Numbered from the stretch's first letter, positions 31,959 to 46,054 are shown. The stretch is DNA of 64,000 nucleotides from an uncultured delta proteobacterium (GCA_963827685.1 CAWHBU010000001.1:224001-288000), one strand, 5' to 3'. The notes: generated by a model not told the origin, from the sequence alone. Translations and numbers: made by a program.

Positions 31959-32150
31959 ATGCCTATTGTTCAGATCAGCTTGGTTCCAGGGAGGACTCCG
32001 GAAAAGAAGGAGGAACTGATTAAGAACGTCACCAATGCCATTGCCGATACGCTTCGGATTCCAAAAGAACGGGTTCACATCGTCCTGAACGAAGTCCCAA
32101 AAGAAAATATCGGCCGTGGTGGCGTGCCTCTTTCTAAAATAGATCAATGA
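31959..32150 (+). CDS. 4-oxalocrotonate tautomerase family protein
   Basis: N-terminal Pro, GRT.EKK, length 63 aa, AAGGAG RBS. Confidence 0.92.
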   Translation: MPIVQISLVPGRTPEKKEELIKNVTNAIADTLRIPKERVHIVLNEVPKENIGRGGVPLSKIDQ

Positions 32151-32253
32151 CGCCGATTCAACGGAGGCCAAGGAACAGGTGGATTAAAACAGCTATTGCA
32201 TTATTTTCTGAATTCTGCTGTTCTGAATTCAGAAAATAATGTGGAGGTGCGAA

Positions 32254-32541
32254 GTGCAAACAGCAAGATCCATCACAGCAGAAATTAAGTCCCGTGGCCA
32301 GTTGACCATTCCTAAGAAAATTAGGGTCATGAGCCATCTCGAAGAAGGGCAAGTCGTCTCAATCATTCCGGTGGGCGATTCGGTCATTATTACCCCCAAG
32401 AAACTTGAGCTCGACGAAGCAAGAAGAGAGATCAGAAAGATCGTTAGAGCGGTCGGCCTTACTCCTGAAGATCTCCTGGTAGGGCTCAAGGAAGAACGAG
32501 AAAAGTTATATCAAGTGACCTATGGGAAAAAAAGTCGTTAG
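32254..32541 (+). CDS. AbrB/MazE-type antitoxin
   Basis: RGQLTIPKKIR...LEEG; GGAGG RBS before GTG 32254. Confidence 0.85.
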   Translation: MQTARSITAEIKSRGQLTIPKKIRVMSHLEEGQVVSIIPVGDSVIITPKKLELDEARREIRKIVRAVGLTPEDLLVGLKEEREKLYQVTYGKKSR

Positions 32542-32638
32542 GGAACTCGACAAGTATCCATTTCATGTCGTGACCCCCTCAGAATTTATTGATTCAATTC
32601 TTCCTGAGGTTCTAAAAGGACTCGAAGAAAAAGAATGA
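32522..32638 (+). pseudogene. Internally deleted PIN-domain toxin remnant
   Basis: MGKKVVR start overlaps the antitoxin end; joined out of frame to a ...P.EFIDSILPEVLKGLEEKE* tail. Confidence 0.45.
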
Positions 32639-32727
32639 ATAAAGGTTGGTTCTCCTTACACCTCACGCCTCACGGTGTTTGATGCGTTATGCGAGATTCT
32701 GTATGTGAGAAACGGAAAGTTTGATTG

Positions 32728-33318
32728 ATGAATAAGACTAAAAAACCCAGTCTCTATGTCATCGCCGGCCCAAATGGCTCGGGGAAGACAACCTTTTCCA
32801 AAAAGTTTCTTCCTGATTATGTGGAATGTTTGGAATTTGTCAATGTTGATCTTATCGCCAAAGGTCTCTCTCCGTTTACCCCGGGAAGGGCGATGCTTCA
32901 AGCAGGAAGGATTATGCTAGAACAAATCCATTCTTTGGGTAACCGCGGCATTGATTTTGGTTTTGAAACGACGCTTGCCGGAAAGACCTACCTTAGACTG
33001 CTGAATGAATTGAAACAGAAAGGCTACTCTATCCATCTTTTCTTCCTGTGGATTAAAAGCGTAAAACTCGCCCTGGAGCGTATTGAATTACGTGTTCAAC
33101 AAGGGGGACATTCTATTCCAGAAGCGACGGTTCGGCGTCGCTTTCGAAGAGGAATTCTTAACTTTTTCAATGAGTACCAACCTATTGTTGATTCATGGGT
33201 CATTTTTGACAATTCAGAAGACATTCCTAAAATGATTGCATTTAAAGAATCCGGAAAATTAGAAATCCTTGATTCTGCGTCATTTGACATGTTATTAAAA
33301 TATAAGGATCAAAAATGA
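32728..33318 (+). CDS. Zeta-toxin-like / AAA P-loop protein
   Basis: IAGPNGSGKTT, VNVDLIA, FETTL, RV.QGGH.IPE, FDNS. Confidence 0.88.
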   Translation: MNKTKKPSLYVIAGPNGSGKTTFSKKFLPDYVECLEFVNVDLIAKGLSPFTPGRAMLQAGRIMLEQIHSLGNRGIDFGFETTLAGKTYLRLLNELKQKGYSIHLFFLWIKSVKLALERIELRVQQGGHSIPEATVRRRFRRGILNFFNEYQPIVDSWVIFDNSEDIPKMIAFKESGKLEILDSASFDMLLKYKDQK

Positions 33319-33530
33319 AGACCCGCGGGAAAAAGAACCATAAGTTTTTAGCCTACATGGCCGAAAAAGCCTTTAAAGAGGCTGTTGCTGAAGCGATTGA
33401 TGAACACCGGCGGAACGGTGTTCCGATTGCCGTATGGCGTAATGGGAAAGTCGTGCTTGTACCTCCTTCTCAAATGATGGTCCGTGAGCCTCAAACCGAA
33501 TATCTCGTCTCAAAAAAAAAGAACCGCTAG
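33315..33530 (+). CDS. Small partner protein of the zeta-like ATPase
   Basis: ATGA overlap; AV.EAI.EH...G.PIAVWRNGKVV. Confidence 0.75.
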   Translation: MKTRGKKNHKFLAYMAEKAFKEAVAEAIDEHRRNGVPIAVWRNGKVVLVPPSQMMVREPQTEYLVSKKKNR

Positions 33531-33863
33531 AGTAGAAAGGCATCTGCCTTCGGCACTCAGCATCCGGGTGTCAGCGATCAGGAATTAGGGATCAACTGTC
33601 TGCCGTCGGCGTTCAGGTATATCTCCGCGCCTCCTCCATTCCGCAATCCGCAATCCGCATTTGGGATGCTCCAGAAAAATAGAAAGGTGAGGGTGGATGG
33701 GTTAATTCAACTTTCAAGACCATGACACCTTTGACTGTTCCAAAGTTGCATTTCAATAAAAAGATAAAAAGTGACATTTATTGTCGGCTCACCGATAGAC
33801 ACTTCATCCCGCTATACGTGATACATCTTGTTTTCTCTTATGATATTGATACCTTTAACTACC

Positions 33864-33879
33864 TGGCATCATTCTTGCT
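33864..33879 (+). promoter_or_regulatory. Sigma54 promoter
   Basis: TGGCAT-CATTC-TTGCT upstream of ORF 34089. Confidence 0.65.
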
Positions 33880-33930
33880 GAGAAAAGAATAGAAGTAAAA
33901 CGAGGAGAACAAAGCCAAACGGCGAGTAAT

Positions 33931-34041
33931 CGACCCATTCGACTTTTCGGTCTGAAGCCCGGGGTATGCTCAGGGTTGATACTGAGCGGCGCTTTCCCAC
34001 CCCGATTTAGAAATGGGGTTTGGCGCCGTCGAACGTATCAA
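33931..34041. repeat. REP/MITE-like element (TTCGAC...GTCGAA arms, CTCAG/CTGAG) with nested hairpins
   Basis: ccattcgac...gctcagggttgatactgagc...ACCCC/GGGGT...gtcgaacg. Confidence 0.5.
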
Positions 34042-34088
34042 TGGGGCCCTGTGTGACCGGTGTATCTGAGCGGCCAAGTTTGAGGTAG

Positions 34089-34991
34089 ATGGTGGAGCAA
34101 GGGAGTTTTCAAGGAATTGCGGCAGGCGTAGAACGAATCATGGAGAATGCCCGTTCCGACCTGAGAGAGGCGATGGACCAATTTGAGGAACTATGCTTGA
34201 CGATTACCGAGGAGAGGGATGTTCCAATAGATATCATTACCGAGACCCGCCAAACCTATAAAAAAATTCAGGATCAACTCACGAAGATCAGCGGAGCCAG
34301 GCAACTCTTAGAAGGCAAATACAGGCACTATTATCGCCGTAACTATCAGCGCGAAAAAGAAATCATGCAAATTGCATTTTTGGCTAAGAGTTTGTACCTG
34401 ACATTCGAGGAAACAGAAGCAAAGCGCAAGCTAAAGGGTATGGAAGAATATTCTGAGGCGCACAGTCAGCCAATACCGTTTCCATGGTTTCAATCCAAGG
34501 AAAATCAGATCCTTCTTTTAAGAAATCTACGCAATCTAGACGAGTTGGACTATAAAACCAAATTTGAATTGGGATTTGAGCGGAGACAAGAGGTAATCCA
34601 GAACGCGATTCGAAGCATCTTCCTCTTTGCCTTATTAGGGGAGGCAAAGTTGATCGATATCCTTCAATCCCGCATGCGATTCCGAGAATATGATATCACA
34701 GAGCGTTATAAAGAGGACGAGTTCCGTGGGGCTTTAACCCGCTTAAAGGAGGTATCTCCTTCAGAAGTACAGAAGGTCCTTCGACGCATCGTAGGCACCA
34801 GTGAATTTTTGAAACTGAAATGCTTGCTTCTTAGGATTCAATCTCAAGATGATCTCAAAAAAGCGACCGTACGTTCTGCAGAAGATATTTTACGAGGGAT
34901 GGGCTCAATCATCTCAACCATATTGAAAAGTCAGTACATCACAGGAACCCACATTGGGTGCCAGGTCTATACTATTGATAGATCATTCTAA
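34089..34991 (+). CDS. Hypothetical helical protein
   Basis: 300-aa ORF with GAGG RBS and sigma54 promoter; no motif recognised. Confidence 0.65.
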   Translation: MVEQGSFQGIAAGVERIMENARSDLREAMDQFEELCLTITEERDVPIDIITETRQTYKKIQDQLTKISGARQLLEGKYRHYYRRNYQREKEIMQIAFLAKSLYLTFEETEAKRKLKGMEEYSEAHSQPIPFPWFQSKENQILLLRNLRNLDELDYKTKFELGFERRQEVIQNAIRSIFLFALLGEAKLIDILQSRMRFREYDITERYKEDEFRGALTRLKEVSPSEVQKVLRRIVGTSEFLKLKCLLLRIQSQDDLKKATVRSAEDILRGMGSIISTILKSQYITGTHIGCQVYTIDRSF

Positions 34992-35165
34992 TTTGGGATG
35001 TTCCTACATTCATTGAAACAGTTTAGGATAAGGAAAGTAACAAAGGATAAATGAAATATTAGGATTTCAAAAGAGGCTGTTATATACTTTAGGTTTTCCT
35101 TCCCAATGTTTTTTACAAGATGTCTACAAACCTTGAGAAAACGATAAAATGCGTGTTGAGCAGGG

Positions 35166-36479
35166 TTATGTCCCTTGATCCTCCAGAGGCCCCGTCAACA
35201 GTGAGTCCTGCAAAATGATCCCCTTCTCCGCATAAATGGGGTGGACCATTTTTCTCAAAGAGGGAAGTTTTTTGGCAAAGAGGACCGAACCAAAAATACA
35301 TAGGATGCCGCCGATCATCGTCGTCCCGGGTGCTCCGATTGCACTCGCTAAGCTGCCAGCGAAGAGACTGCCAAAAGGAACCATTCCCATGAAGGCCATG
35401 GCATAAAAACTCATCACCCGTCCCCGCTTATCCTCGTCCACAATGGTCTGAAGCAGCGTGTTTGTCGAGGTCATTTGAACCATCATTCCAAATCCTGTGG
35501 GGACCATCATCGCCATGGATAACCAAAACAGGCGAGAGAAGGAAAATCCTATGAGCCCGATTCCAAAGAGGCTCGAAGCGATGATAACAATTCGTCCCAA
35601 GCCGAGGACACTCCTCCGTGACGCAAGAAAAATGGCTCCTGCCAGAGCTCCCACGCCCGTAGCCCCGAGAAGAAAACCGAGCGTTTGCGGTCCACCGTGA
35701 AGGATCTTTCCCGCAAAAACAGGCATGAGGACGGTGTAGGGCATTCCCATGAAACTGATGAGCGCAAGCAGAAGAAGCAGGGACCGGATGGGGACAAATC
35801 CGAAGGCGTAGCGATAGCCTTCTTTTAAACCCTGCCATAACGGAGTGCTCTGTCTGTCTTTCTTTTTCGGGGTAATTCGCATCGCTAAAAGGGCTGCGAT
35901 CACCGTGATAAAGCTCAATCCGTTCAGAAGGAAACACAATCCTTCCCCCAAAGCAGCGATCAGCATCCCTGCCACCGAGGGGCCGACCAAGCGGGCACCA
36001 TTCACCATTGAAGAGTTAAGGGCGATGGCATTCCCCAGATCCTCCCGCCGCTCGATCATATCCACGACAAAGGATTGACGAACAGGGATATCAAAGGCGT
36101 TTATTAGACCGAGAAAAAAGGCCAAAGCGATGATTTGCCAGATGACAATCGTTTCCGTCAGGACCAGGGCTGCCAGGATCAGCGCTTGAATCATGGAAAG
36201 GACTTGGGTGGCCACAAGAAGGTGGTGGCGATTCCATCGGTCCACGAGTACGCCGGCGAAAGAGGCAAGTAGGAAAGTGGGAATCCGACCGGCGAAGCCC
36301 ACCACGCCCAGTAGAAAGCTTGATTGTGTTAATCGAAATACCAACCAGCTGATGGCAGTGAGCTGGAGCCAGGTGCCGATCAACGAAATGCTCTGGCCGC
36401 CAAAGAAGAGGCGGTAATTTCGGTGCGAGAGGGCACGGAAGATCAGGCCTAAGCCTTTGGGATTCGGGGAAAAATTCAT
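35166..36479 (-). CDS. MFS transporter (MFS_3-like)
   Basis: RNYRLFF.GQ.ISL.GTW, G.L.DRW.R, D.P.RQSF, RGRVMS. Confidence 0.93.
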   Translation of the reverse strand: MNFSPNPKGLGLIFRALSHRNYRLFFGGQSISLIGTWLQLTAISWLVFRLTQSSFLLGVVGFAGRIPTFLLASFAGVLVDRWNRHHLLVATQVLSMIQALILAALVLTETIVIWQIIALAFFLGLINAFDIPVRQSFVVDMIERREDLGNAIALNSSMVNGARLVGPSVAGMLIAALGEGLCFLLNGLSFITVIAALLAMRITPKKKDRQSTPLWQGLKEGYRYAFGFVPIRSLLLLLALISFMGMPYTVLMPVFAGKILHGGPQTLGFLLGATGVGALAGAIFLASRRSVLGLGRIVIIASSLFGIGLIGFSFSRLFWLSMAMMVPTGFGMMVQMTSTNTLLQTIVDEDKRGRVMSFYAMAFMGMVPFGSLFAGSLASAIGAPGTTMIGGILCIFGSVLFAKKLPSLRKMVHPIYAEKGIILQDSLLTGPLEDQGT

Positions 36480-36568
36480 TCCTTATTCCTATTTCAATTT
36501 TTTCAGTATATCCGATAGGTGACCATGAATTCAATGGATGGCCTGAACCAAGGGTTATCGAGGGGATA

Positions 36569-36622
36569 GGGTCAGGTCTTGCAATCACACAGTTCATAAA
36601 ACAAGAGAGGTGTCATCCATAA
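36569..36622 (+). repeat. Array junction repeat, copy J1 (lacks GTTGGC)
   Basis: GGGTCAGGTCTTGCAATCACACAGTTCATAAAACAAGAGAGGTGTCATCCATAA. Confidence 0.9.
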
Positions 36623-37025
36623 TAGGGCAGATGGGGGGACGCGGAGATACGGTGAACAGAGATGAGGAGATATGGAAACATCTAGGATTGCGGAGTACGG
36701 AGTTAATAAAACAACGAATGAATAAGTTATCGGGTTACTAAGTGATTAAGTGTCTTTGCCAGAATTTGGGTTGGCGGACAGTATCAAGACAACCCCTCCT
36801 GCAATTTCACCTGCTACTGTCCGCTCCCGACAGATCAACTTTTCTAGGCTTTTTTTCAGCCTACTTTCTATGCTCCTCCTCCCCTCTTCCAGATTTTCCT
36901 TGAGACTTTTGTAGTTGTCTTTGTTGCTGAATAGTCTTTGGGGTCAAAGCTACATTATACACTTTGCTTGATAGAGATCAGAGGGGGCGTCCATAAGATT
37001 ATAAGAATCTTAAAAGGGATTTAGC

Positions 37026-37046
37026 TCATCCATAAAAAAGTTGGCC
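37026..37046 (+). repeat. Array junction repeat, copy J2 (3' half only)
   Basis: TCATCCATAAAAAAGTTGGCC. Confidence 0.85.
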
Positions 37047-37426
37047 CATTCGAATGCGGAATGCAGATTGCGGATTGCGGAATGCAAATTGTAAACGCGA
37101 ATTCCAGAGTCATTGGATCATTTGGGATATTCCAAAAGTAAGTCCTGGTAGAACTCCGAAGACAACTTAAAAATAGATAGAATGTCAACCTTGTTCAAAA
37201 TAGGATTCTCAACGCAGAGACGCAAAGGACGCGGAGAAGAGGAACTGGCATGAAGATTGGGATCATCGGGAATACGAGAGACATCGTGAGGAAATGTGGG
37301 ATACCAAATTCTATGGGGTCCAGTGGATTCAGACTTGAAAATTGAGATTCGCGGTAATCTGTATGGTGGAACTTGACGGTCAGACAATCGGAAAACGTCC
37401 TAGAAAATGATCAGTCACTATTTCCT

Positions 37427-38032
37427 ATGGAGCCTATAAATCTAAATCTCATCCAAGAAATTTATCACCTCTGGGAACCAGTTTACCCCTATTTAGGCCA
37501 ACAGATCCACGAACTTTATCACCGCCAAGATGGAAACATTCTGGAAATTGGGCCATTCAGTGGCGTCATTTTTAATTTACAAAAAAGGAATATAGGCAGT
37601 TCCTTCTTAATTGCAACTTTCCCGTCTGGAATGGGTAATTATTTTCAAGAAGAGGCAATAAAACAAAAGGTGAATGATAAGATCAGGGTCATTGGAACTG
37701 ATCCAGCTTTAACCGGTATAGAAGAAAACAACATAGACCTTGCTATTTTCAGAGGAGCTTTTTTCTTTCCTTCGCTGTTTAAAGTTAATTTTTCAGTAAT
37801 TTATCGAATTTTAAAAACAAATGGGATTGCATTTATTGGAGGAGGATTTGGTAAATTCACCCCAAATAGCGTCATTAAGGACATTGGAAAGAGGTCACGG
37901 GAACTCAACCTTCAGATTGGTAAGATTGAGATAAACGAGGATAGATTACGACAAGATATCCAAATTGAGGGTATAGAAGGGGAAATCAAAATTATCTCTG
38001 AAGGGGGATTATGGGTTTTGATGAAAAAGTAG
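37427..38032 (+). CDS. Class I SAM-methyltransferase-like protein (divergent)
   Basis: ILEIGPFSG motif-I-like, DLAIFRGA, YRILK.NG.AFIGGGFG; AT-rich. Confidence 0.7.
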   Translation: MEPINLNLIQEIYHLWEPVYPYLGQQIHELYHRQDGNILEIGPFSGVIFNLQKRNIGSSFLIATFPSGMGNYFQEEAIKQKVNDKIRVIGTDPALTGIEENNIDLAIFRGAFFFPSLFKVNFSVIYRILKTNGIAFIGGGFGKFTPNSVIKDIGKRSRELNLQIGKIEINEDRLRQDIQIEGIEGEIKIISEGGLWVLMKK

Positions 38033-38040
38033 TGCGGATC

Positions 38041-38100
38041 AGGGCTGCGGGGTCAGGCTTGGGATATTGCGATTTGGTGGCCTCCATAAAAAAGTTGGCC
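38041..38100 (+). repeat. Array junction repeat, copy J3 (variant middle)
   Basis: AGGGCTGCGGGGTCAGGCTT...GGTGGCCTCCATAAAAAAGTTGGCC, 8 nt after the stop codon. Confidence 0.85.
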
Positions 38101-38472
38101 GTACCAAAGGTATTCGATGAAAAAACAATGGTAAAAATTGGGATGATTTCACGCCGTGAGCCATTCAAAAAGTTTGACGAAGAATAAAAAGGAGCAATGA
38201 GACAAATCGAATATTGACATTTTTCGCTAATATCCTTCCAAAATTTCCAAGTTTCTAGATAACAGCATTATCTTTAAACTCTTGTGTGTGGTTCTAAGGC
38301 TCGAATATTATTGTTTTTTTAGATTTTCCTAATTCTTATATTGAATTGGCACAAGATGTGCTATATTAAATTTGTTTCCGCCATTAATATTTATTGACCT
38401 AATCAGGATTATTGTGATCTTTTGTTTGTACTCTGATATATCTTCGGTTAAAATTCCATTAGAGATACAAGA

Positions 38473-39054
38473 ATGATGCATATGCAGGATGTAGCGAAAG
38501 AGAAAAGAATTAACGCTATCCGTTATTTTTGCAAGAATACCAAGGACCTTACCGAAACAAAACTTTACAAGCTTCTTTATTTTCTAGATTTCCTTCATTT
38601 CAAAGAAGTTGGAAGACCGGTCACGGACCTTGAATATTTTGCCTGGAATTACGGCCCTGTCCCAGCGAAACTTTTTTTTGAAATAAAAGAGAAAAAGGCT
38701 CCTAAGGAAATATTGATGTGCATCATAGAAGAGAAGGACGCAGAAACAGGCAAAAAAGTGAAGACTTCTTTTAAATCCTTGCAGGCTCCTGACCTAAATG
38801 TATTCTCAGAGAGAGAGATTGAAATTTTGGAGAGGGTAGCATTTATTTTTAAGGATGCCAAAGCCAAGGATATGACTGAAATAACTCATTTAAAAAATGA
38901 ACCTTGGCATAAAACTCTTGAGTCGAAAGGGGAAAAGTCAAAGATAGATTTCTTATTATCCCTGGATAAGGATGCGAAGATTGATAAAGACCTAGCAACG
39001 GAGCGTCTGCAATTATCAAATGAGATGAAGCAGCTTTTTGGAAGTGAAAAATAA
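38473..39054 (+). CDS. Panacea (DUF4065/SocA) antitoxin-domain protein
   Basis: KLYKLLYFLDF.H, Y.AW.YGPVP, ITH.KNEPW. Confidence 0.88.
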   Translation: MMHMQDVAKEKRINAIRYFCKNTKDLTETKLYKLLYFLDFLHFKEVGRPVTDLEYFAWNYGPVPAKLFFEIKEKKAPKEILMCIIEEKDAETGKKVKTSFKSLQAPDLNVFSEREIEILERVAFIFKDAKAKDMTEITHLKNEPWHKTLESKGEKSKIDFLLSLDKDAKIDKDLATERLQLSNEMKQLFGSEK

Positions 39055-39063
39055 GGGAATAGA

Positions 39064-39468
39064 TTGGAAAAGGGAACCATTCTATTTCACGAAAAATTTA
39101 GATTTGTTAATGGGGAATTAGGTGAGAAGTTATTAATCATTTTAAACACCCCAGACCCTAAAGTAGAACCATATCTCCTTTGTCGAGTCACTTCTCAGGA
39201 AAGCAACAAACCAAAGATCTTTGGGTGCCACCAAGACTTGTCCCTCTTTTTTCTTCCTGCCAACCATGATTTTTTTGAAAAGGATACTTGGGTTCAATTT
39301 TATGAAATTTTCCCGTTTGAGGCAACCACACTTCTTCGGGATCATTTCAATAAACAATTAAGCGTATTAGGGAAACTTAAGGATTTGACAATCCAGCAAA
39401 TGATGAATTGCATCCGAAAGATTAAAGATATATCAGTGATACATAAAAAAATGATTTTGAAAAAATAA
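39064..39468 (+). CDS. Putative toxin partner of Panacea (possibly PemK/MazF-like fold)
   Basis: 9 nt after the antitoxin; G.IL...F.F..G..GEK.LIILN...TSQ pattern. Confidence 0.6.
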   Translation: MEKGTILFHEKFRFVNGELGEKLLIILNTPDPKVEPYLLCRVTSQESNKPKIFGCHQDLSLFFLPANHDFFEKDTWVQFYEIFPFEATTLLRDHFNKQLSVLGKLKDLTIQQMMNCIRKIKDISVIHKKMILKK

Positions 39469-39480
39469 ATCAATATCTTG

Positions 39481-39553
39481 AGGGCTCTGGGGCCAGGTCT
39501 TGCAATCACACATTTCATAAAACAAGAGAGGTATCATCCATAAAAAAGTTGGC
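39481..39553 (+). repeat. Array junction repeat, copy J4 (full)
   Basis: AGGGCTCTGGGGCCAGGTCTTGCAATCACACATTTCATAAAACAAGAGAGGTATCATCCATAAAAAAGTTGGC. Confidence 0.92.
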
Positions 39554-39632
39554 ACAGATTTCCCAGGTGAAACCTTCGGTGTCCTTATAATATAAAGGGC
39601 CTGATCTGCAGGCTGCCAATTCTTAAATCCAC

Positions 39633-40142
39633 TTACCACAAGGAAAGCTTCTCTACTGCCAAACGAGCGGCTTTTTCTATATCTGTTGAGAATAAGGAAT
39701 TCATCTCAACCATCGAACGGCCCAATACCCGACCCGTTTCGGTATCGATGATCTTCACCTGAAGGTACCAACTCAAAAGGCTTGGAGAGTAAATCATTCC
39801 CGTTATCAGGGCCTGGGCACCCACCCTCCTACCAATCTTTAATCTGGTTGCATCATCCAGTTGGTTAAGATTGAATTTCTCTTCTTGAGGGTTGTCCAAG
39901 AACTGCCGCCCGCCCAAAATTGAAATCTGCGGGAATCTCTCGTGAAAATTCCGGGCAAAGGCCTTAGCCACTTCGCCAGTATCATCTCCTTCAAAGGGAA
40001 GGACTGCAATGTTTTCGTATTTTAAGAATTCTTTTCTGAGAAAACCACCCCCACCTGGCTGGGCACAGCCCGTGACAGAGAGAACGATCAATAGAAACAA
40101 ACAGAGAGAGATACAGACTTTCCCCTTCCCTTTTCTTTTCAT
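39633..40142 (-). CDS. Lipoprotein, CsgG/FlgO-like fold
   Basis: Lipobox VTGC, IAVLPF, KIG...GAQALITG, KIIDTETG. Confidence 0.75.
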   Translation of the reverse strand: MKRKGKGKVCISLCLFLLIVLSVTGCAQPGGGGFLRKEFLKYENIAVLPFEGDDTGEVAKAFARNFHERFPQISILGGRQFLDNPQEEKFNLNQLDDATRLKIGRRVGAQALITGMIYSPSLLSWYLQVKIIDTETGRVLGRSMVEMNSLFSTDIEKAARLAVEKLSLW

Positions 40143-40476
40143 TCCGGTCCTCCTAAAATATTGTAACTCCCCTTCTCTTTTCCCTCAAGAGCTACAGCCT
40201 GGGGGTCAGGCAACGGTAATTCGGTATTGGCGTAAATCTTGAGAGAAATGTAACGATTGAAGAATTGCCCCCATGATCCACTTTTTCTTCCTGAAAGAGT
40301 GATTTTCAAATATTGCTAGGCCATCCAACATTTCACTTGGTAATCCCGAAAGCCGAAGCTTACGCCCTTACGCTTTCTTAAAAGCCAACACTAATACCAA
40401 AATCAAAAATTCAATCGTCCTTAAACAATTTTGACTTTTTCACTCAGGGTCGGCTAAAATTGGTTCGAGCATTAGG

Positions 40477-41382
40477 ATGGGGCACTCTCTCATGGTAGAA
40501 AAAATGGGAATGGAACCTTCCAAATATACAATTCTTGTCGTGGATGATAAAGAGTTATTAAGAAACCTAGTCGACACTTTTCTATCCAAACTGGGACATT
40601 CATGCGTCACAGCAATTGATGGAGTTGATGCTCTGGAGAAAATGAAGGGAAATAAAATCGATGCCGTAGTAACAGACATGAGAATGCCCAACATGGATGG
40701 AATTACTCTTACAAGTAAGATTTCAATACAATACCCTGGACTCCCGGTAATGATCATGACAGCGTTTGACGAAGGAGATACTGCAGGATTAGCAATTACT
40801 GTTGGGGCTCGAGAATTTATAAGAAAGCCATTCTCTCTAGATGAGTTTTCCGTTAGATTACATAAGATGATCAATGACTCGGAAGCTCAAAGGGGAATGA
40901 AGAAGGATAAAGACATAGATAAGTTTATCGAAGAATTTATGAATGAGTTAGAGCCTCCGAAGCAAATGAAGAGGGAAAAGGGTGTAGAGGATGGGTCGCG
41001 AGAACTTTTAGATGAGTTAGACCCCCGTCGTTATGCCCACAAAGAAATGAATAAAGACACCGATGCCTTTTTGCAACATTGTCGGCAGATCCATTTACTT
41101 GCCCTACGATTGGCAGAACACAACATCTCTATTTATAGCCATTCCTTCGATATGCTCGCATTTGGCAGCTGGGTTCTTGTCATGGGAACGCGCAAGGATC
41201 GTATTAGGGTTACTTGGGAGGGAAAGGACGGTATCCTTAAAACCGAAAGAGCTTCAATCCCAGATTCTGAGACTATAATCCGATGGCAAGAAATAACATC
41301 GGAAATAGAAAACACCTTGCCAAATGCTGAAAGCACATTCAAATCTATTGAAGAATTTGTTAAGAAAAACATCAAGGCATAA
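40477..41382 (+). CDS. Response regulator receiver fused in frame to an unrelated 111-aa ORF (41047-41382)
   Basis: ILVVDD, VTDMRMPNMDG, MIMTA, KPF; C-terminal part bracketed by GTTATGC/GCATAAC. Confidence 0.75.
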   Translation: MGHSLMVEKMGMEPSKYTILVVDDKELLRNLVDTFLSKLGHSCVTAIDGVDALEKMKGNKIDAVVTDMRMPNMDGITLTSKISIQYPGLPVMIMTAFDEGDTAGLAITVGAREFIRKPFSLDEFSVRLHKMINDSEAQRGMKKDKDIDKFIEEFMNELEPPKQMKREKGVEDGSRELLDELDPRRYAHKEMNKDTDAFLQHCRQIHLLALRLAEHNISIYSHSFDMLAFGSWVLVMGTRKDRIRVTWEGKDGILKTERASIPDSETIIRWQEITSEIENTLPNAESTFKSIEEFVKKNIKA

Positions 41383-41383
41383 C
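41030..41383 (+). mobile_element. Integron-like gene cassette remnant
   Basis: GTTATGC (41030-36) 11 nt before ATG 41047; its exact complement GCATAAC (41377-83) overlaps the stop codon. Confidence 0.55.
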
Positions 41384-41389
41384 AAGGGA

Positions 41390-41462
41390 AAGGCTGGGGG
41401 GCCAGGTCTTGCAATCACACATTTCATAAAACAAGAGAGGTCATCCATAAAAAAATTGGCCC
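41390..41462 (+). repeat. Array junction repeat, copy J5 (full)
   Basis: AAGGCTGGGGGGCCAGGTCTTGCAATCACACATTTCATAAAACAAGAGAGGTCATCCATAAAAAAATTGGCC. Confidence 0.92.
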
Positions 41463-41531
41463 TGCAAACAAGAGATCGCAAAGAGCATGGCGCATAGAGC
41501 AGAGTGTCATTTGTAAAGAGAGTGAAAAAGT

Positions 41532-41777
41532 TCAGCCTGATAGGTTTTTTATTTTTATCCCTTTACCTTTCTTAAGGCTTTCCCTGGCGGATGCAACTCG
41601 CGCTAAGAACCTGGGATCGTGCTCTAACCTGTAGTCAAACCAGTCCTCTTCGGACCCGAAGCCAATTAAAACACCGGCCGGTTTTCCATGACGTGTGATG
41701 ATAATCTCTTCTTTTTCCGCCAAATCCAGGTATTCTGAAAGGCGGCCCTTAACCTCTGACAGTGCAATCCTTTTCAT
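41532..41777 (-). CDS. Phd/YefM family antitoxin
   Basis: LSEVK.RLSEYL..AE.EEIIITRHGKPAGVL. Confidence 0.9.
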   Translation of the reverse strand: MKRIALSEVKGRLSEYLDLAEKEEIIITRHGKPAGVLIGFGSEEDWFDYRLEHDPRFLARVASARESLKKGKGIKIKNLSG

Positions 41778-41990
41778 TTCTTCTCTCCCATTTCCTCCAG
41801 CCACTCAGTGGCTTTGGACTTCGGTATAATTGCCAAGACTTCTACCGTCGCTTCCACAACCATAAAAAACCCTGATTTCATCGACTCTCAATCGATACTG
41901 TGGTCGACTGATACCCTGTAACTTTTTTATCCGACTCTTGCTTATTTTTTGCGGCTCAAACCTTAGATGTTTTTCGATCGCCTCTATGAG
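41774..41990 (-). pseudogene. RelE/ParE toxin, 5'-truncated and frameshifted
   Basis: IEAIEKHLRFEP..ISKSRIKKL.G...PQYRLRVDEIRVFY / VVEATVEVLAII; cut off at junction J6. Confidence 0.8.
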
Positions 41991-41991
41991 T

Positions 41992-42020
41992 GGGTGGCAT
42001 CCATAAAAAAGTTGGCCCTG
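41992..42020 (+). repeat. Array junction repeat, copy J6 (3' half only)
   Basis: GGGTGGCATCCATAAAAAAGTTGGCCCTG. Confidence 0.85.
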
Positions 42021-42157
42021 CCCATTAAAGTGAAGATGGGGTATTCAATTGCGCCTGCCTGCCGGTAGGCAGGGAATGCGGATTGCCGAATGCGGAATTT
42101 AAAACTAAAAAGAGCATAGAGCGGAGCGTTTAGACCCCTTGCGCTTCACGCCTGGAT

Positions 42158-43192
42158 TTATTTCTCTCGCAGCCTTTTGGACACTTCTGCGGTCAACTCA
42201 CAAACCTTTTCAGCCAAAGGAATAGGAAGTGACGCAGCTCCACAACTGGGGGTGATGATGGTTTTTTGAAGAAGGATTGGGTCAATTCCTTTCTTTGAGA
42301 GAGTTTCAATTCCTTCTTTGAAACGTTTGATCAGACTTTGCACATCCTCTTTTAGAATAGCCTCACTCGTTGGGACGATGCCCCAGGCTAAGATGCCTCC
42401 TCTTTCTAAGAATGCTCTTAAGTCCTTTGGATAAAGAGAAAGTGTCTCCAGATATTCATATGCGTCGAAGCTGAGAATATCGAGATGCGTCGAGAGAAGC
42501 ACACTCCAGTCGGTATTTCCACAGCAGTGAGTTCCCTTTAATCCTTTCACAGCATCAAAACATTCATTTAATGAATGAACGACATCCTCCCGATTCAGGC
42601 CTGAGAAGGCAGAGCCAAATGAGGAGAGGGAGGGTTCGTCAAAAAAGAGTATCGTTGGGATCCCGGGAAAGAGGTCATTGAACTTCTTTTCCATCCATCG
42701 TGCTTTCAATGAAAGGTGTTTGACGAGGATGTCTCTTAAAGACGGGTCGTAAAAGATAGGTTTCTGCTCCTGATCGGCTAAGGCGAGACCAAACGTGACC
42801 GGCCCTGTGATCTGGCCCTTGATATATTTTATCTTCTTTCGGTGGTCTTTTGACGAGAGGGTTTTTAAGATCCGGAGCCCCCTTGCAAAATCCTCCGTGA
42901 TTTGAAAAGGGTCAAGATCGCCCTCCTCGAAACGTTGGTAAAATTTCTCGATTTCTTTCTCAAATCCCTGAGACGTCTCTATCCAAACCCTTTGTTCCTT
43001 TTCATTCCATCTTAAGGAAGGAAACCCTTCAGAATATTGAACGACCATACCTTCCAGAAAAGACCGCTTTGGCAGTTGGGGCCAGAATGGGATTTCGGGG
43101 AAGTTCTTGAAGATGAGTCCGAAGACCTCCTTCTCATCCTGATGAGGGAAGGACCCGATTCCTGTTGTGATGAAAGGGTATTGAAATTCCAT
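42158..43192 (-). CDS. Core (catalytic-domain-only) MetE-like methionine synthase, MesB-like
   Basis: TGIGSFPH, KGQITGPVT, FDEP, Zn-ligand pattern HCC...D...TPSCG. Confidence 0.8.
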   Translation of the reverse strand: MEFQYPFITTGIGSFPHQDEKEVFGLIFKNFPEIPFWPQLPKRSFLEGMVVQYSEGFPSLRWNEKEQRVWIETSQGFEKEIEKFYQRFEEGDLDPFQITEDFARGLRILKTLSSKDHRKKIKYIKGQITGPVTFGLALADQEQKPIFYDPSLRDILVKHLSLKARWMEKKFNDLFPGIPTILFFDEPSLSSFGSAFSGLNREDVVHSLNECFDAVKGLKGTHCCGNTDWSVLLSTHLDILSFDAYEYLETLSLYPKDLRAFLERGGILAWGIVPTSEAILKEDVQSLIKRFKEGIETLSKKGIDPILLQKTIITPSCGAASLPIPLAEKVCELTAEVSKRLREK

Positions 43193-43555: not shown

Positions 43556-43560
43556 TAAAA

Positions 43561-44095
43561 AATACCTGTTGAATACCGCCCAGCTCTGCTGGGCGGATGA
43601 AAACAGGTTCGCGAAGCGATAAGACATGGTATAAGTACTGCATGAGCTCGATAAAAAGAACAAGCCATGCGGTCTACGATTTGAAATATCATATGGTATG
43701 GGTTCCCAAATATCGGAAGATGATATTGGGAGGTGAGTTGGCAAAAAGGCTTAAGATGAGTTTTGAGCAAATATCGGAGAGGTACGAGTTTGAGATAGAT
43801 ACGATGGAGGTAAAGGATGATCATGTTCATTTATTTTTGTCTGCCCCTCCTCGGTATTGTCCGGCAGAGATTGTGCAGATCATAAAGAGTATCTCGGCGA
43901 AAATGGTGTTCAAGCAGTTTCCAGAGGTGAAGAAAGAGCTTTGGGGTGGAGAGTTTTGGAGTGATGGGTATTTTGTTCGGTCTGTTGGAGACAAAGTTAC
44001 CTCTGAAGTCATACGTCGCTATATAAAGTATCAGCAACAGGAGCAATTAAGTTTTGAATTTTAATGCCCCGCAGCTCTGCTGCGGGGTTCTTTAC
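43561..44095 (+). mobile_element. IS200/IS605-family insertion sequence (tnpA only)
   Basis: Subterminal hairpins CCGCCCAGC-TCT-GCTGGGCGG and CCCCGCAGC-TCT-GCTGCGGGG flank tnpA; exact ends approximate. Confidence 0.88.
43642..44064 (+). CDS. tnpA: IS200/IS605 Y1 transposase
   Basis: YH.VW.PKYR, DHVH (HUH), FWSDGYFV, YIKYQ. Confidence 0.95.
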   Translation: MSSIKRTSHAVYDLKYHMVWVPKYRKMILGGELAKRLKMSFEQISERYEFEIDTMEVKDDHVHLFLSAPPRYCPAEIVQIIKSISAKMVFKQFPEVKKELWGGEFWSDGYFVRSVGDKVTSEVIRRYIKYQQQEQLSFEF

Positions 44096-44131
44096 TTTGA
44101 ATAAATTTTAACAGAAGGGAGGTCTGTCTCT

Positions 44132-44419: not shown

Positions 44420-46054
<1,635 letters not shown>

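Follow-up and report, generated by a model that had tools for sequence, protein, structure and literature searches.

Arrays of toxin-antitoxin and defence genes bounded by a short directional site in Syntrophales: a candidate hairpin-independent cassette system

Integrons are the textbook example of gene capture, and they are defined by a folded attC hairpin next to an integrase. The 64,000-nt stretch of DNA analysed here in its entirety (the window), from an uncultured delta proteobacterium of a wetland, contains between positions 36,560 and 42,020 an array of genes interrupted by six similar, co-oriented junctions, and it raises the question of what these junctions are and whether genes are gained and lost at them. 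The host genome, designated G000, is a metagenome-assembled genome of 5.23 Mb, 94.5% complete and with an estimated contamination of 7.98%. An earlier note on this DNA, made from the sequence alone, had described the region as a cassette array bounded by a short directional site, a description that our analysis bears out. We lean, slightly, toward the interpretation that the array belongs to a hairpin-free, attI-like, site-specific cassette system, a variant of the integron principle.

All six junction copies listed in the earlier note were recovered on the + strand, at 36569, 37026, 38041, 39481, 41390, and 41992. When the window was searched with the 19-mer CATCCATAAAAAAGTTGGC, matches with 0-1 mismatch were found at 37027, 38081, 39535, 41442, and 41998; these five matches compare with 0.05 expected, and none of 100 shuffled sequences gave five. 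A 39-nt left part was found, also with 0-1 mismatch, at 36573, 39494, and 41403 (0 expected). Three junctions start close behind + strand stop codons, as had been noticed before, namely 8, 12, and 7 nt after the open reading frames (ORFs) ending at 38032, 39468, and 41382. The composite junction proposed at the outset did not prove to be obligate. The copies at 37026 and 41992 consist of the core without the left part, the copy at 38041 has GGGGTCAGG with a different middle part, and many junctions lack the GGGGYCAGGTCTTGCAAT half, which is an independent, genome-wide palindromic arm of the repetitive extragenic palindrome (REP) or miniature inverted-repeat transposable element type.

The invariant part of the junction is a core of about 25 nt, GGTGT-CATCCnTAAAAAAGTTGG-CC. 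In a sequence logo built from 106 unique sites of 129, taken from G000 and 23 loci of relatives, position 5 was free and information collapsed outside positions -5 to +19. The claim that similarity stops just past GTTGGC holds for this family-wide logo, in which information falls from 1.2-1.9 bits to at most 0.5 bit beyond +19; it does not hold for every copy, since subsets share a downstream CGGAATG/CGGATTG heptamer or GCGCATAGAGC-type tracts. The core is neither palindromic nor dispersed, and its conservation is sharp across genera, with one free position in its middle. These sharp edges and the free internal position look like those of a protein recognition site. A sigma-54 promoter reading of TTGGCC-N-TTGC was also considered and rejected; by our own count, its spacing is one base too long for the consensus.

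When G000 was scanned with a position weight matrix of the core at a threshold of at least 14 bits, 53 matches were obtained, compared with 2 for the reversed-matrix control. Forty-one of the 53 lay within five arrays that together span 65.8 kb, or 1.3% of the 5.23 Mb: contig C1 at 261.0-266.0 kb (the array of the window), C4 at 503-536 kb and at 726-729 kb, C5 at 55-70 kb, and C7 at 180-190.5 kb. The same site bounds arrays at no fewer than five loci of G000 and across the family; scattering over the whole genome was seen for the REP arm but not for the core. Within each of the 22 multi-site loci, all cores lay on one strand; the same was true of all 43 multi-core loci in a second set that overlaps the first. 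The core strand was the G-rich strand in all four contigs that carry arrays. Of 36 family genomes, 27 contained the 19-mer with up to 2 mismatches, compared with none of 13 from two sister families, and single weak matches were present in 2 of 11 more distant genomes. An exact 21-mer occurred in 72 stretches of a species-representative collection, and nearly all of these records are labelled Thermodesulfobacteriota, delta proteobacterium, Syntrophales, or Syntrophaceae. No exact match to this 21-mer was found among the IMG/VR viral contigs.

The ORF upstream of a core was co-oriented with it in 99 of 119 cases and lay on the opposite strand in the other 20. The median distance from stop codon to core was 76 nt, and the median spacing between cores was 1267 nt. 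Array cargo consists mostly of toxin-antitoxin (TA) and defence genes (PIN, MazE, Zeta, Fic, HEPN/MNT, DarT-Macro, AbiE, Phd/YoeB/ParE, Panacea, restriction-modification, a CD-NTase, BrxL, NERD, and Mrr); some metabolic genes were also found.

Turnover of this cargo was examined by comparing genomes, in every case between species. As an anchor for the orthologous locus we used the conserved flank gene at 42158..43192 (- strand), whose orthologues are 82-93% identical in 12 of 14 other genomes of the same genus; the remaining two (G013 and G014) gave only 41%, paralogue-level matches. Comparison with relatives, which the earlier note had proposed as a check, showed that the cassettes differ and that shared blocks end at the site. 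Where G000 has an island of about 10 kb (32.1-42.16 kb), G005 has 129 unaligned nt; G003 and G006 share only the lipoprotein block with G000, and G006 also has other cassettes; G004, G010, G012, and G002 have arrays of 2-7 cores with other genes. In the close pair G004/G010, two indels (608 and 1142 nt) each extend from one core to another, and the exact point at which homology restarts is a core start; the cores of this pair show 2 differences before GTT and none in the next ~36 nt after it. When arrays were compared all against all, 97 shared blocks were obtained. Left ends coincided with a core start in both partners in 6 cases (0.002 expected), and right ends coincided with a core in 8 (0.02 expected). 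When the windows were widened, 49 and 77 of 194 block ends were counted, compared with 8.1 and 10.5 expected.

Exchange of such units also reaches across genera. G000 and G026, which belong to different genera, have MazE-PIN cassettes that match at 93.3% identity, whereas their groEL genes match at 82%; in a three-genome alignment, homology of this cassette extends from the core before it through the whole of the following core, and the flanks are unrelated. The Phd cassette of the window matches a cassette of another genus (G015) at 91% over 515 nt, and that cassette is likewise preceded by a core. Co-oriented cassettes that move as units, a hallmark of integrons, are present at these loci.

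The main rival to the cassette interpretation is that the junctions are a mosaic intergenic repeat residing in accessory islands, with the core a protein-binding or transcription motif, and that shuffling occurs by homologous recombination between junctions of 25-105 nt. Mosaic intergenic repeats that combine REP and RAYT components go by the names BIME and RIP, and the junctions resemble them in being mosaics of a REP arm, an A-rich motif, and short repeats located 3' of genes. G000 is indeed rich in modular repeats. The REP arm CAGGTCTTGCAAT, with at most 1 mismatch, has 43 copies in the genome (3 for the reversed control). Of these, 35 are located outside arrays, 12 are accompanied by an inverted partner no more than 160 nt away, and only 7 are followed by a core; the arm builds palindromic units of 45-125 bp and flanks a RAYT-like gene. 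The earlier note had compared the GGGGYCAGG half with REP arms near RAYT genes; RAYT-like genes showed no association with the core. The heptamer tracts that follow many cores on their right side also belong to a genome-wide intergenic repeat, with 157 tracts, about 15 of which adjoin a core by a loose test. Examples of these heptamers (CGGAATG/CGGATTG) lie in the window at 33637-33661, 37052-37095, and 42074-42103; they often form inverted pairs just past stop codons, and CCTGCC...GGCAGG hairpin elements stand inside some tracts. Left parts other than the REP arm include a 105-nt form (type B, 7 copies), a terminator-like hairpin in some junctions, and only 8-30 nt in others, such as the MazE-PIN cassette, where just 8-30 nt precede the core. 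Junction left and right parts are swapped independently of cargo, and the arrays carry no linked recombinase, both of which fit a mosaic repeat.

Several properties of the core nonetheless render this rival unlikely. A dispersed palindrome with a flanked RAYT gene describes the left half of the junction but not the core, which, in contrast to the REP arm and the heptamers, is clustered (41 of 53 matches in 1.3% of the genome) and has sharp conservation edges and a free internal position. Core polarity is kept on one strand even beside the 20 of 119 upstream ORFs that are reversed, and transfer between genera has occurred in core-bounded units. In the one case read, the core lies ~170 nt from the cassette promoter, and therefore it is not an operator. 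A further difference from BIME/RIP-type repeats is that the core keeps to a small number of polar arrays within accessory islands, where it borders blocks of genes that have been exchanged horizontally.

How, then, might a cassette system of the hairpin-free, attI-like kind operate? We infer site-specific catalysis at a defined crossover point by a dedicated enzyme. The working part would be a double-stranded, directional site of ~25 bp, with TCCATAA (L-box-like) and GTTGGCC (R-box-like) on either side of an A-rich spacer. A cassette would extend from just past one core to the end of the next and would contain, in this order, a low-complexity tract, its own promoter and genes, a variable 3' tail, and the core; the tail may hold a REP arm or a terminator-like hairpin. 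A circular cassette with one core would recombine with a resident core by conservative site-specific recombination. Integration would duplicate the core and lengthen the array in one direction, the reverse reaction would excise a cassette, and the recombinase would be supplied in trans.

One precedent is the attI site itself. According to one report (PMC12901181), attI1 has an L box CCCTAAA and an R box GTTRRRY, and IntI1 both excises and inserts cassettes with attI1 on both sides. The core has an attI-like grammar, as suspected earlier: in TCCATAA-AAAA-GTTGGCC, TCCATAA resembles the attI1 L box, and GTTGGCC fits 6 of the 7 positions of GTTRRRY. A putative duplex L box-spacer-R box would be the feature that the arrays share with attI and delta-attI cassettes, in which crossover occurs at G|TT and attI1-gene-attI1 units are moved by IntI1. 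Because the core has attI-like grammar and IntI1 moves such units, the leading guess is an integron-type enzyme acting in trans, namely a tyrosine recombinase akin to integron integrases that would act on attI-like duplex sites. The second TCCATAAAA copy upstream in the type B junction is reminiscent of the attI DR1/DR2 repeats. Delta-attI units are rare and lie inside class 1/2 integrons with their cognate integrase, whereas here whole chromosomal arrays, at many loci, are made of candidate sites of this type alone.

A broader formulation, to which we assign a likelihood somewhat short of even, is that Syntrophales have a hairpin-independent analogue of integrons, with a direct-repeat 25-bp site, hotspots, exchange of TA and defence genes between genera, and a recombinase encoded away from the arrays; the enzyme would be either an integrase acting on attI-like sites or one that is new as a cassette recombinase. 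If this is true, attC-based searches, IntegronFinder among them, miss part of integron-style capture, the TA and defence islands of uncultured anaerobes may have an unrecognised assembly mechanism, and the 25-bp site with its matching recombinase would be a candidate tool for genome engineering. A literature search, which was not exhaustive and did not extend to supplementary files, found no description of such arrays.

Similarity to classical integrons raises a second alternative, namely that the arrays are CALINs (integrase-less arrays of attC cassettes), decayed from classical arrays with diverged attC sites and built by the IntI of the family. Likenesses are numerous: short, co-oriented cassettes (median 1.3 kb), a site 3' of the ORF that ends in a GTTRRRY-like box, TA and defence cargo, reversed TA cassettes that keep the array polarity, and cassettes common to different arrays and genera. 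In addition, full-length intI is present in 17 of 41 family genomes, and the only intI of G000 is a C-terminal fragment (C3:782919-783275, TIGR02249 positions 197-315, 191 bits), from which the nearest core-like site is 43 kb away. This fragment adjoins a RarA-like gene, and similar fragments were seen in at least 8 other family genomes, a recurrence that suggests an old, conserved remnant.

We nevertheless judge the CALIN alternative very improbable. When the two strands of five junctions were folded as single strands, z-scores ranged from -0.55 to +1.36 relative to shuffled sequences; none of the 10 folds beat its shuffles, in accord with the earlier proposal that the array is not built on attC hairpins. 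Because they do not fold, the junctions are not attC sites. No R''/R' complementarity was present, and some sites have just 8-30 nt before the core. No Rfam family matched the junctions, and a crude attC finder reported nothing inside the five arrays while recovering 2 sites beside the intI of G026. Beside that intact gene stands an integron with ordinary GCCTAAC...GTTAGGC hairpins; the classical integrons of the same family have ordinary attC sites. The arrays differ from integrons and CALINs in having a conserved 25-bp duplex rather than a folded imperfect palindrome, and in that intI is neither adjacent to them nor co-distributed with the core.

A third alternative holds that the core is a Xer (dif-like) site and that the cassettes, like dif modules or IMEX elements, are moved by host XerC/XerD. 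XerC/D-like genes are present in G000 (C2:664.6 kb and C5:208.2 kb), and they would explain a universal enzyme acting in trans; the dif modules of Acinetobacter reportedly carry toxin-antitoxin genes and likewise combine small TA or accessory modules with short, simple sites and an enzyme encoded elsewhere. The dif site of the family, however, is a canonical 28-mer (in G000 probably the site at C2:737718-737745), in single copy in 22 of 41 genomes and in three families, and the core is unlike it, lacking a XerD arm and the 11-6-11 dyad. All array sites are direct repeats, chromosomal, and present at several loci, in which they differ from dif modules, and the core is missing from sister families that have the same dif. 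We give this alternative hardly any credence.

A recombinase was sought within and around the arrays. The window holds no match to PF00589 or TIGR02249, and the absence of an integrase noted earlier was thereby upheld; the PF00589 matches of contig C1 lie at 55.9-57.6 kb, outside the window. These belong to one of three identical elements with adjacent tyrosine recombinase genes (C1:55.9-57.6, C2:701.3-702.9, and C4:735.1-736.8 kb), possibly of the recombinase-in-trio kind; the C4 copy lies 6 kb from the core pair at C4 726-729 kb. As a linked enzyme, IntI was rejected, being neither co-distributed with the core nor adjacent to arrays. Short (~200 aa) stand-alone tyrosine recombinases, with three paralogues in G000, were rejected as well; they occur in only 6 of 61 genomes, are also present in the core-free G027, and are missing from the core-rich G007, G010, G013, and G021. 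No serine recombinase (PF00239) was found in G000, in a search whose control matched 12 of 14 genomes, and a search for IS91 Y2 transposases gave no match, nor did its control. A tentative lead is provided by ORF6N genes, which at four arrays, two of them in relatives, precede the first core by 3-8 kb and share the strand of the array (C5:73.6-74.8 kb and C7:193.8-194.0 kb; L053 7065-7679 and L061 2678-3241). Three of the four ORF6N copies of G000 are so placed, 3-5 kb ahead of the arrays on C5 and C7. No ORF6N gene accompanies the arrays on C1 and C4, and the domain is non-catalytic.

A further alternative, which we consider improbable, is that the cores are ends or targets of single-strand (HUH) elements such as IS200/IS605 or RAYT, or of other transposable elements that enter the lagging-strand template in a fixed orientation. 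The 21 IS200 copies of the genome have the same strand bias as the core, and one of them (43597-44064) lies 1.6 kb from the array; the left motif of the junction is a REP arm, which flanks RAYT-like genes. Set against this, neither the core nor its immediate surroundings contained a hairpin, IS200 copies have ends and flanks that do not resemble the core, and terminal inverted repeats and target duplications were absent; the subterminal hairpins and short conserved target of IS200/IS605 elements or palindrome-associated transposable elements are not features of the core. RAYT-like Y1+HTH genes, rejected as the core enzyme, occur in 50 of 61 genomes without link to the core, including all 13 coreless sister-family genomes, and were not found in the core-bearing G004 and G009. 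The IS200-type element of the window is complete (43560-44100, Y1 ORF 43597-44064, with hairpin ends); 18 copies in G000 have an identical transposase hidden Markov model score and 3 are of a second type, and their strand follows the GC skew of the contig.

A number of observations weigh against a hairpin-free cassette system. No recombinase was found beside the five G000 arrays or beside 11 arrays of relatives, and none of 136 further ORFs of at least 160 aa near cores matched PF00589 or PF00239 at E<=1e-12 (one of the 136 is an IS110 transposase). Among core-rich genomes 6 of 13 have a full-length intI, and among core-poor ones 5 of 15 do; no core was found in 93 kb of sequence adjoining 12 intact intI genes of the family, and the core is unlike the attI regions next to these genes. 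The left part of a junction does not go faithfully with a given cargo, as illustrated by one 900-aa gene with three different left parts in G000, G004, and G010, and on a metagenome contig the Panacea cassette lacked both of its junctions. A distance of 30-150 nt separates many block ends from a core, in part because the post-core tracts are hypervariable tandem repeats. No empty-site core was seen at the unoccupied locus in G005, G007, G008, or G011, and no circular or excised form was found among metagenome sequences, which comprised assembled contigs only. In these contigs, a joint 40232>41998 appeared in three runs, with just 26 nt on one side, and most joints were other repeat copies mapping twice.

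The organization of the array in the window is as follows. Upstream, in the island described above, lies an MFS transporter gene (35166..36479, - strand). Junction 1 (36569..36622, + strand) comprises the REP-like arm and a core cut off after CATCCATAA, and its 39-mer match at 36573 has 1 mismatch. Junction 2 (36938..37046, + strand) is of type B, ~105 nt long and beginning with TTGGGGTCAAAGCT; its core occupies 37027-37045, and an inner TCCATAA(G/A)A repeat stands 46 nt ahead of the core. These ~105 nt are common to 7 copies in G000, upstream of which the sequence is unrelated. Cassette 1 (37047..38040, + strand) contains the heptamer tract at 37052-37095 and an ORF of 219 aa (37373-38032) without a Pfam match. 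It is followed by junction 3 (38041..38100, + strand), in which a variable part connects GGGGTCAGGC with the core at 38081-38099. Cassette 2 (38101..39480, + strand) carries a Panacea-domain antitoxin gene (38473-39054) and a partner ORF of 134 aa (39064-39468); positions 38208-39478 were found in another context on a metagenome contig of run X3. Junction 4 (39481..39554, + strand) is a full type A junction with REP arm and core (39535-39553), and in run X2 it is bounded by loose ends at 39488 and 39553.

Cassette 3 (39555..41389, genes on both strands) holds a lipoprotein gene (39633-40142, - strand) and a response-regulator fusion (40477-41382, + strand). In G003 and G006 the lipoprotein block is 94-95% identical, adjoins the flank gene, and is not accompanied by the response regulator. 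Junction 5 (41390..41461, + strand) is again a full type A junction, its core at 41442-41460 having 1 mismatch, and cassette 4 (41462..41987, - strand) carries a Phd antitoxin gene (41532-41804) and a RelE/ParE-like remnant that is 5'-truncated and frameshifted. In G000 this RelE-like gene is cut at core 6, which belongs to junction 6 (41988..42017, + strand), a short left part with a core at 41998-42016. When the cargo assignments made earlier were checked against Pfam, Panacea (PF13274), the response-regulator receiver, and Phd were confirmed, and the lipoprotein gave a weak DUF3280 match; the ORF called methyltransferase-like had no match at E<=0.01, and the RelE-like partner proved to be the remnant just described.

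Some minor observations concern arrays elsewhere and the surroundings of the array in the window. At C4:726204-729127, a type II restriction-modification pair (an N6/N4 methylase and a Bpu10I-like endonuclease) stands between two near-identical REP-plus-core junctions and looks like a recently inserted or duplicated cassette. A hotspot immediately upstream of obg-proB-proA is occupied by core arrays in two genera, at loci L055 (G026) and L066 (G034); the arrays differ in their cargo, which is BrxL/PIN in one and DUF1156/HEPN/DUF499 in the other. In the window, the part of the island upstream of the array (32100-36500) encodes a Zeta-like toxin, a Phd-like ORF, and a 300-aa ORF in addition to the MFS transporter; it has no core and is missing in G005 along with the array. 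Downstream, groEL at 44438-46054 shares 92% identity with its counterpart in G034, which belongs to a different genus, but only 85-87% with those of two genomes from the genus of G000, a pattern that hints at either transfer or a quirk of taxonomy.

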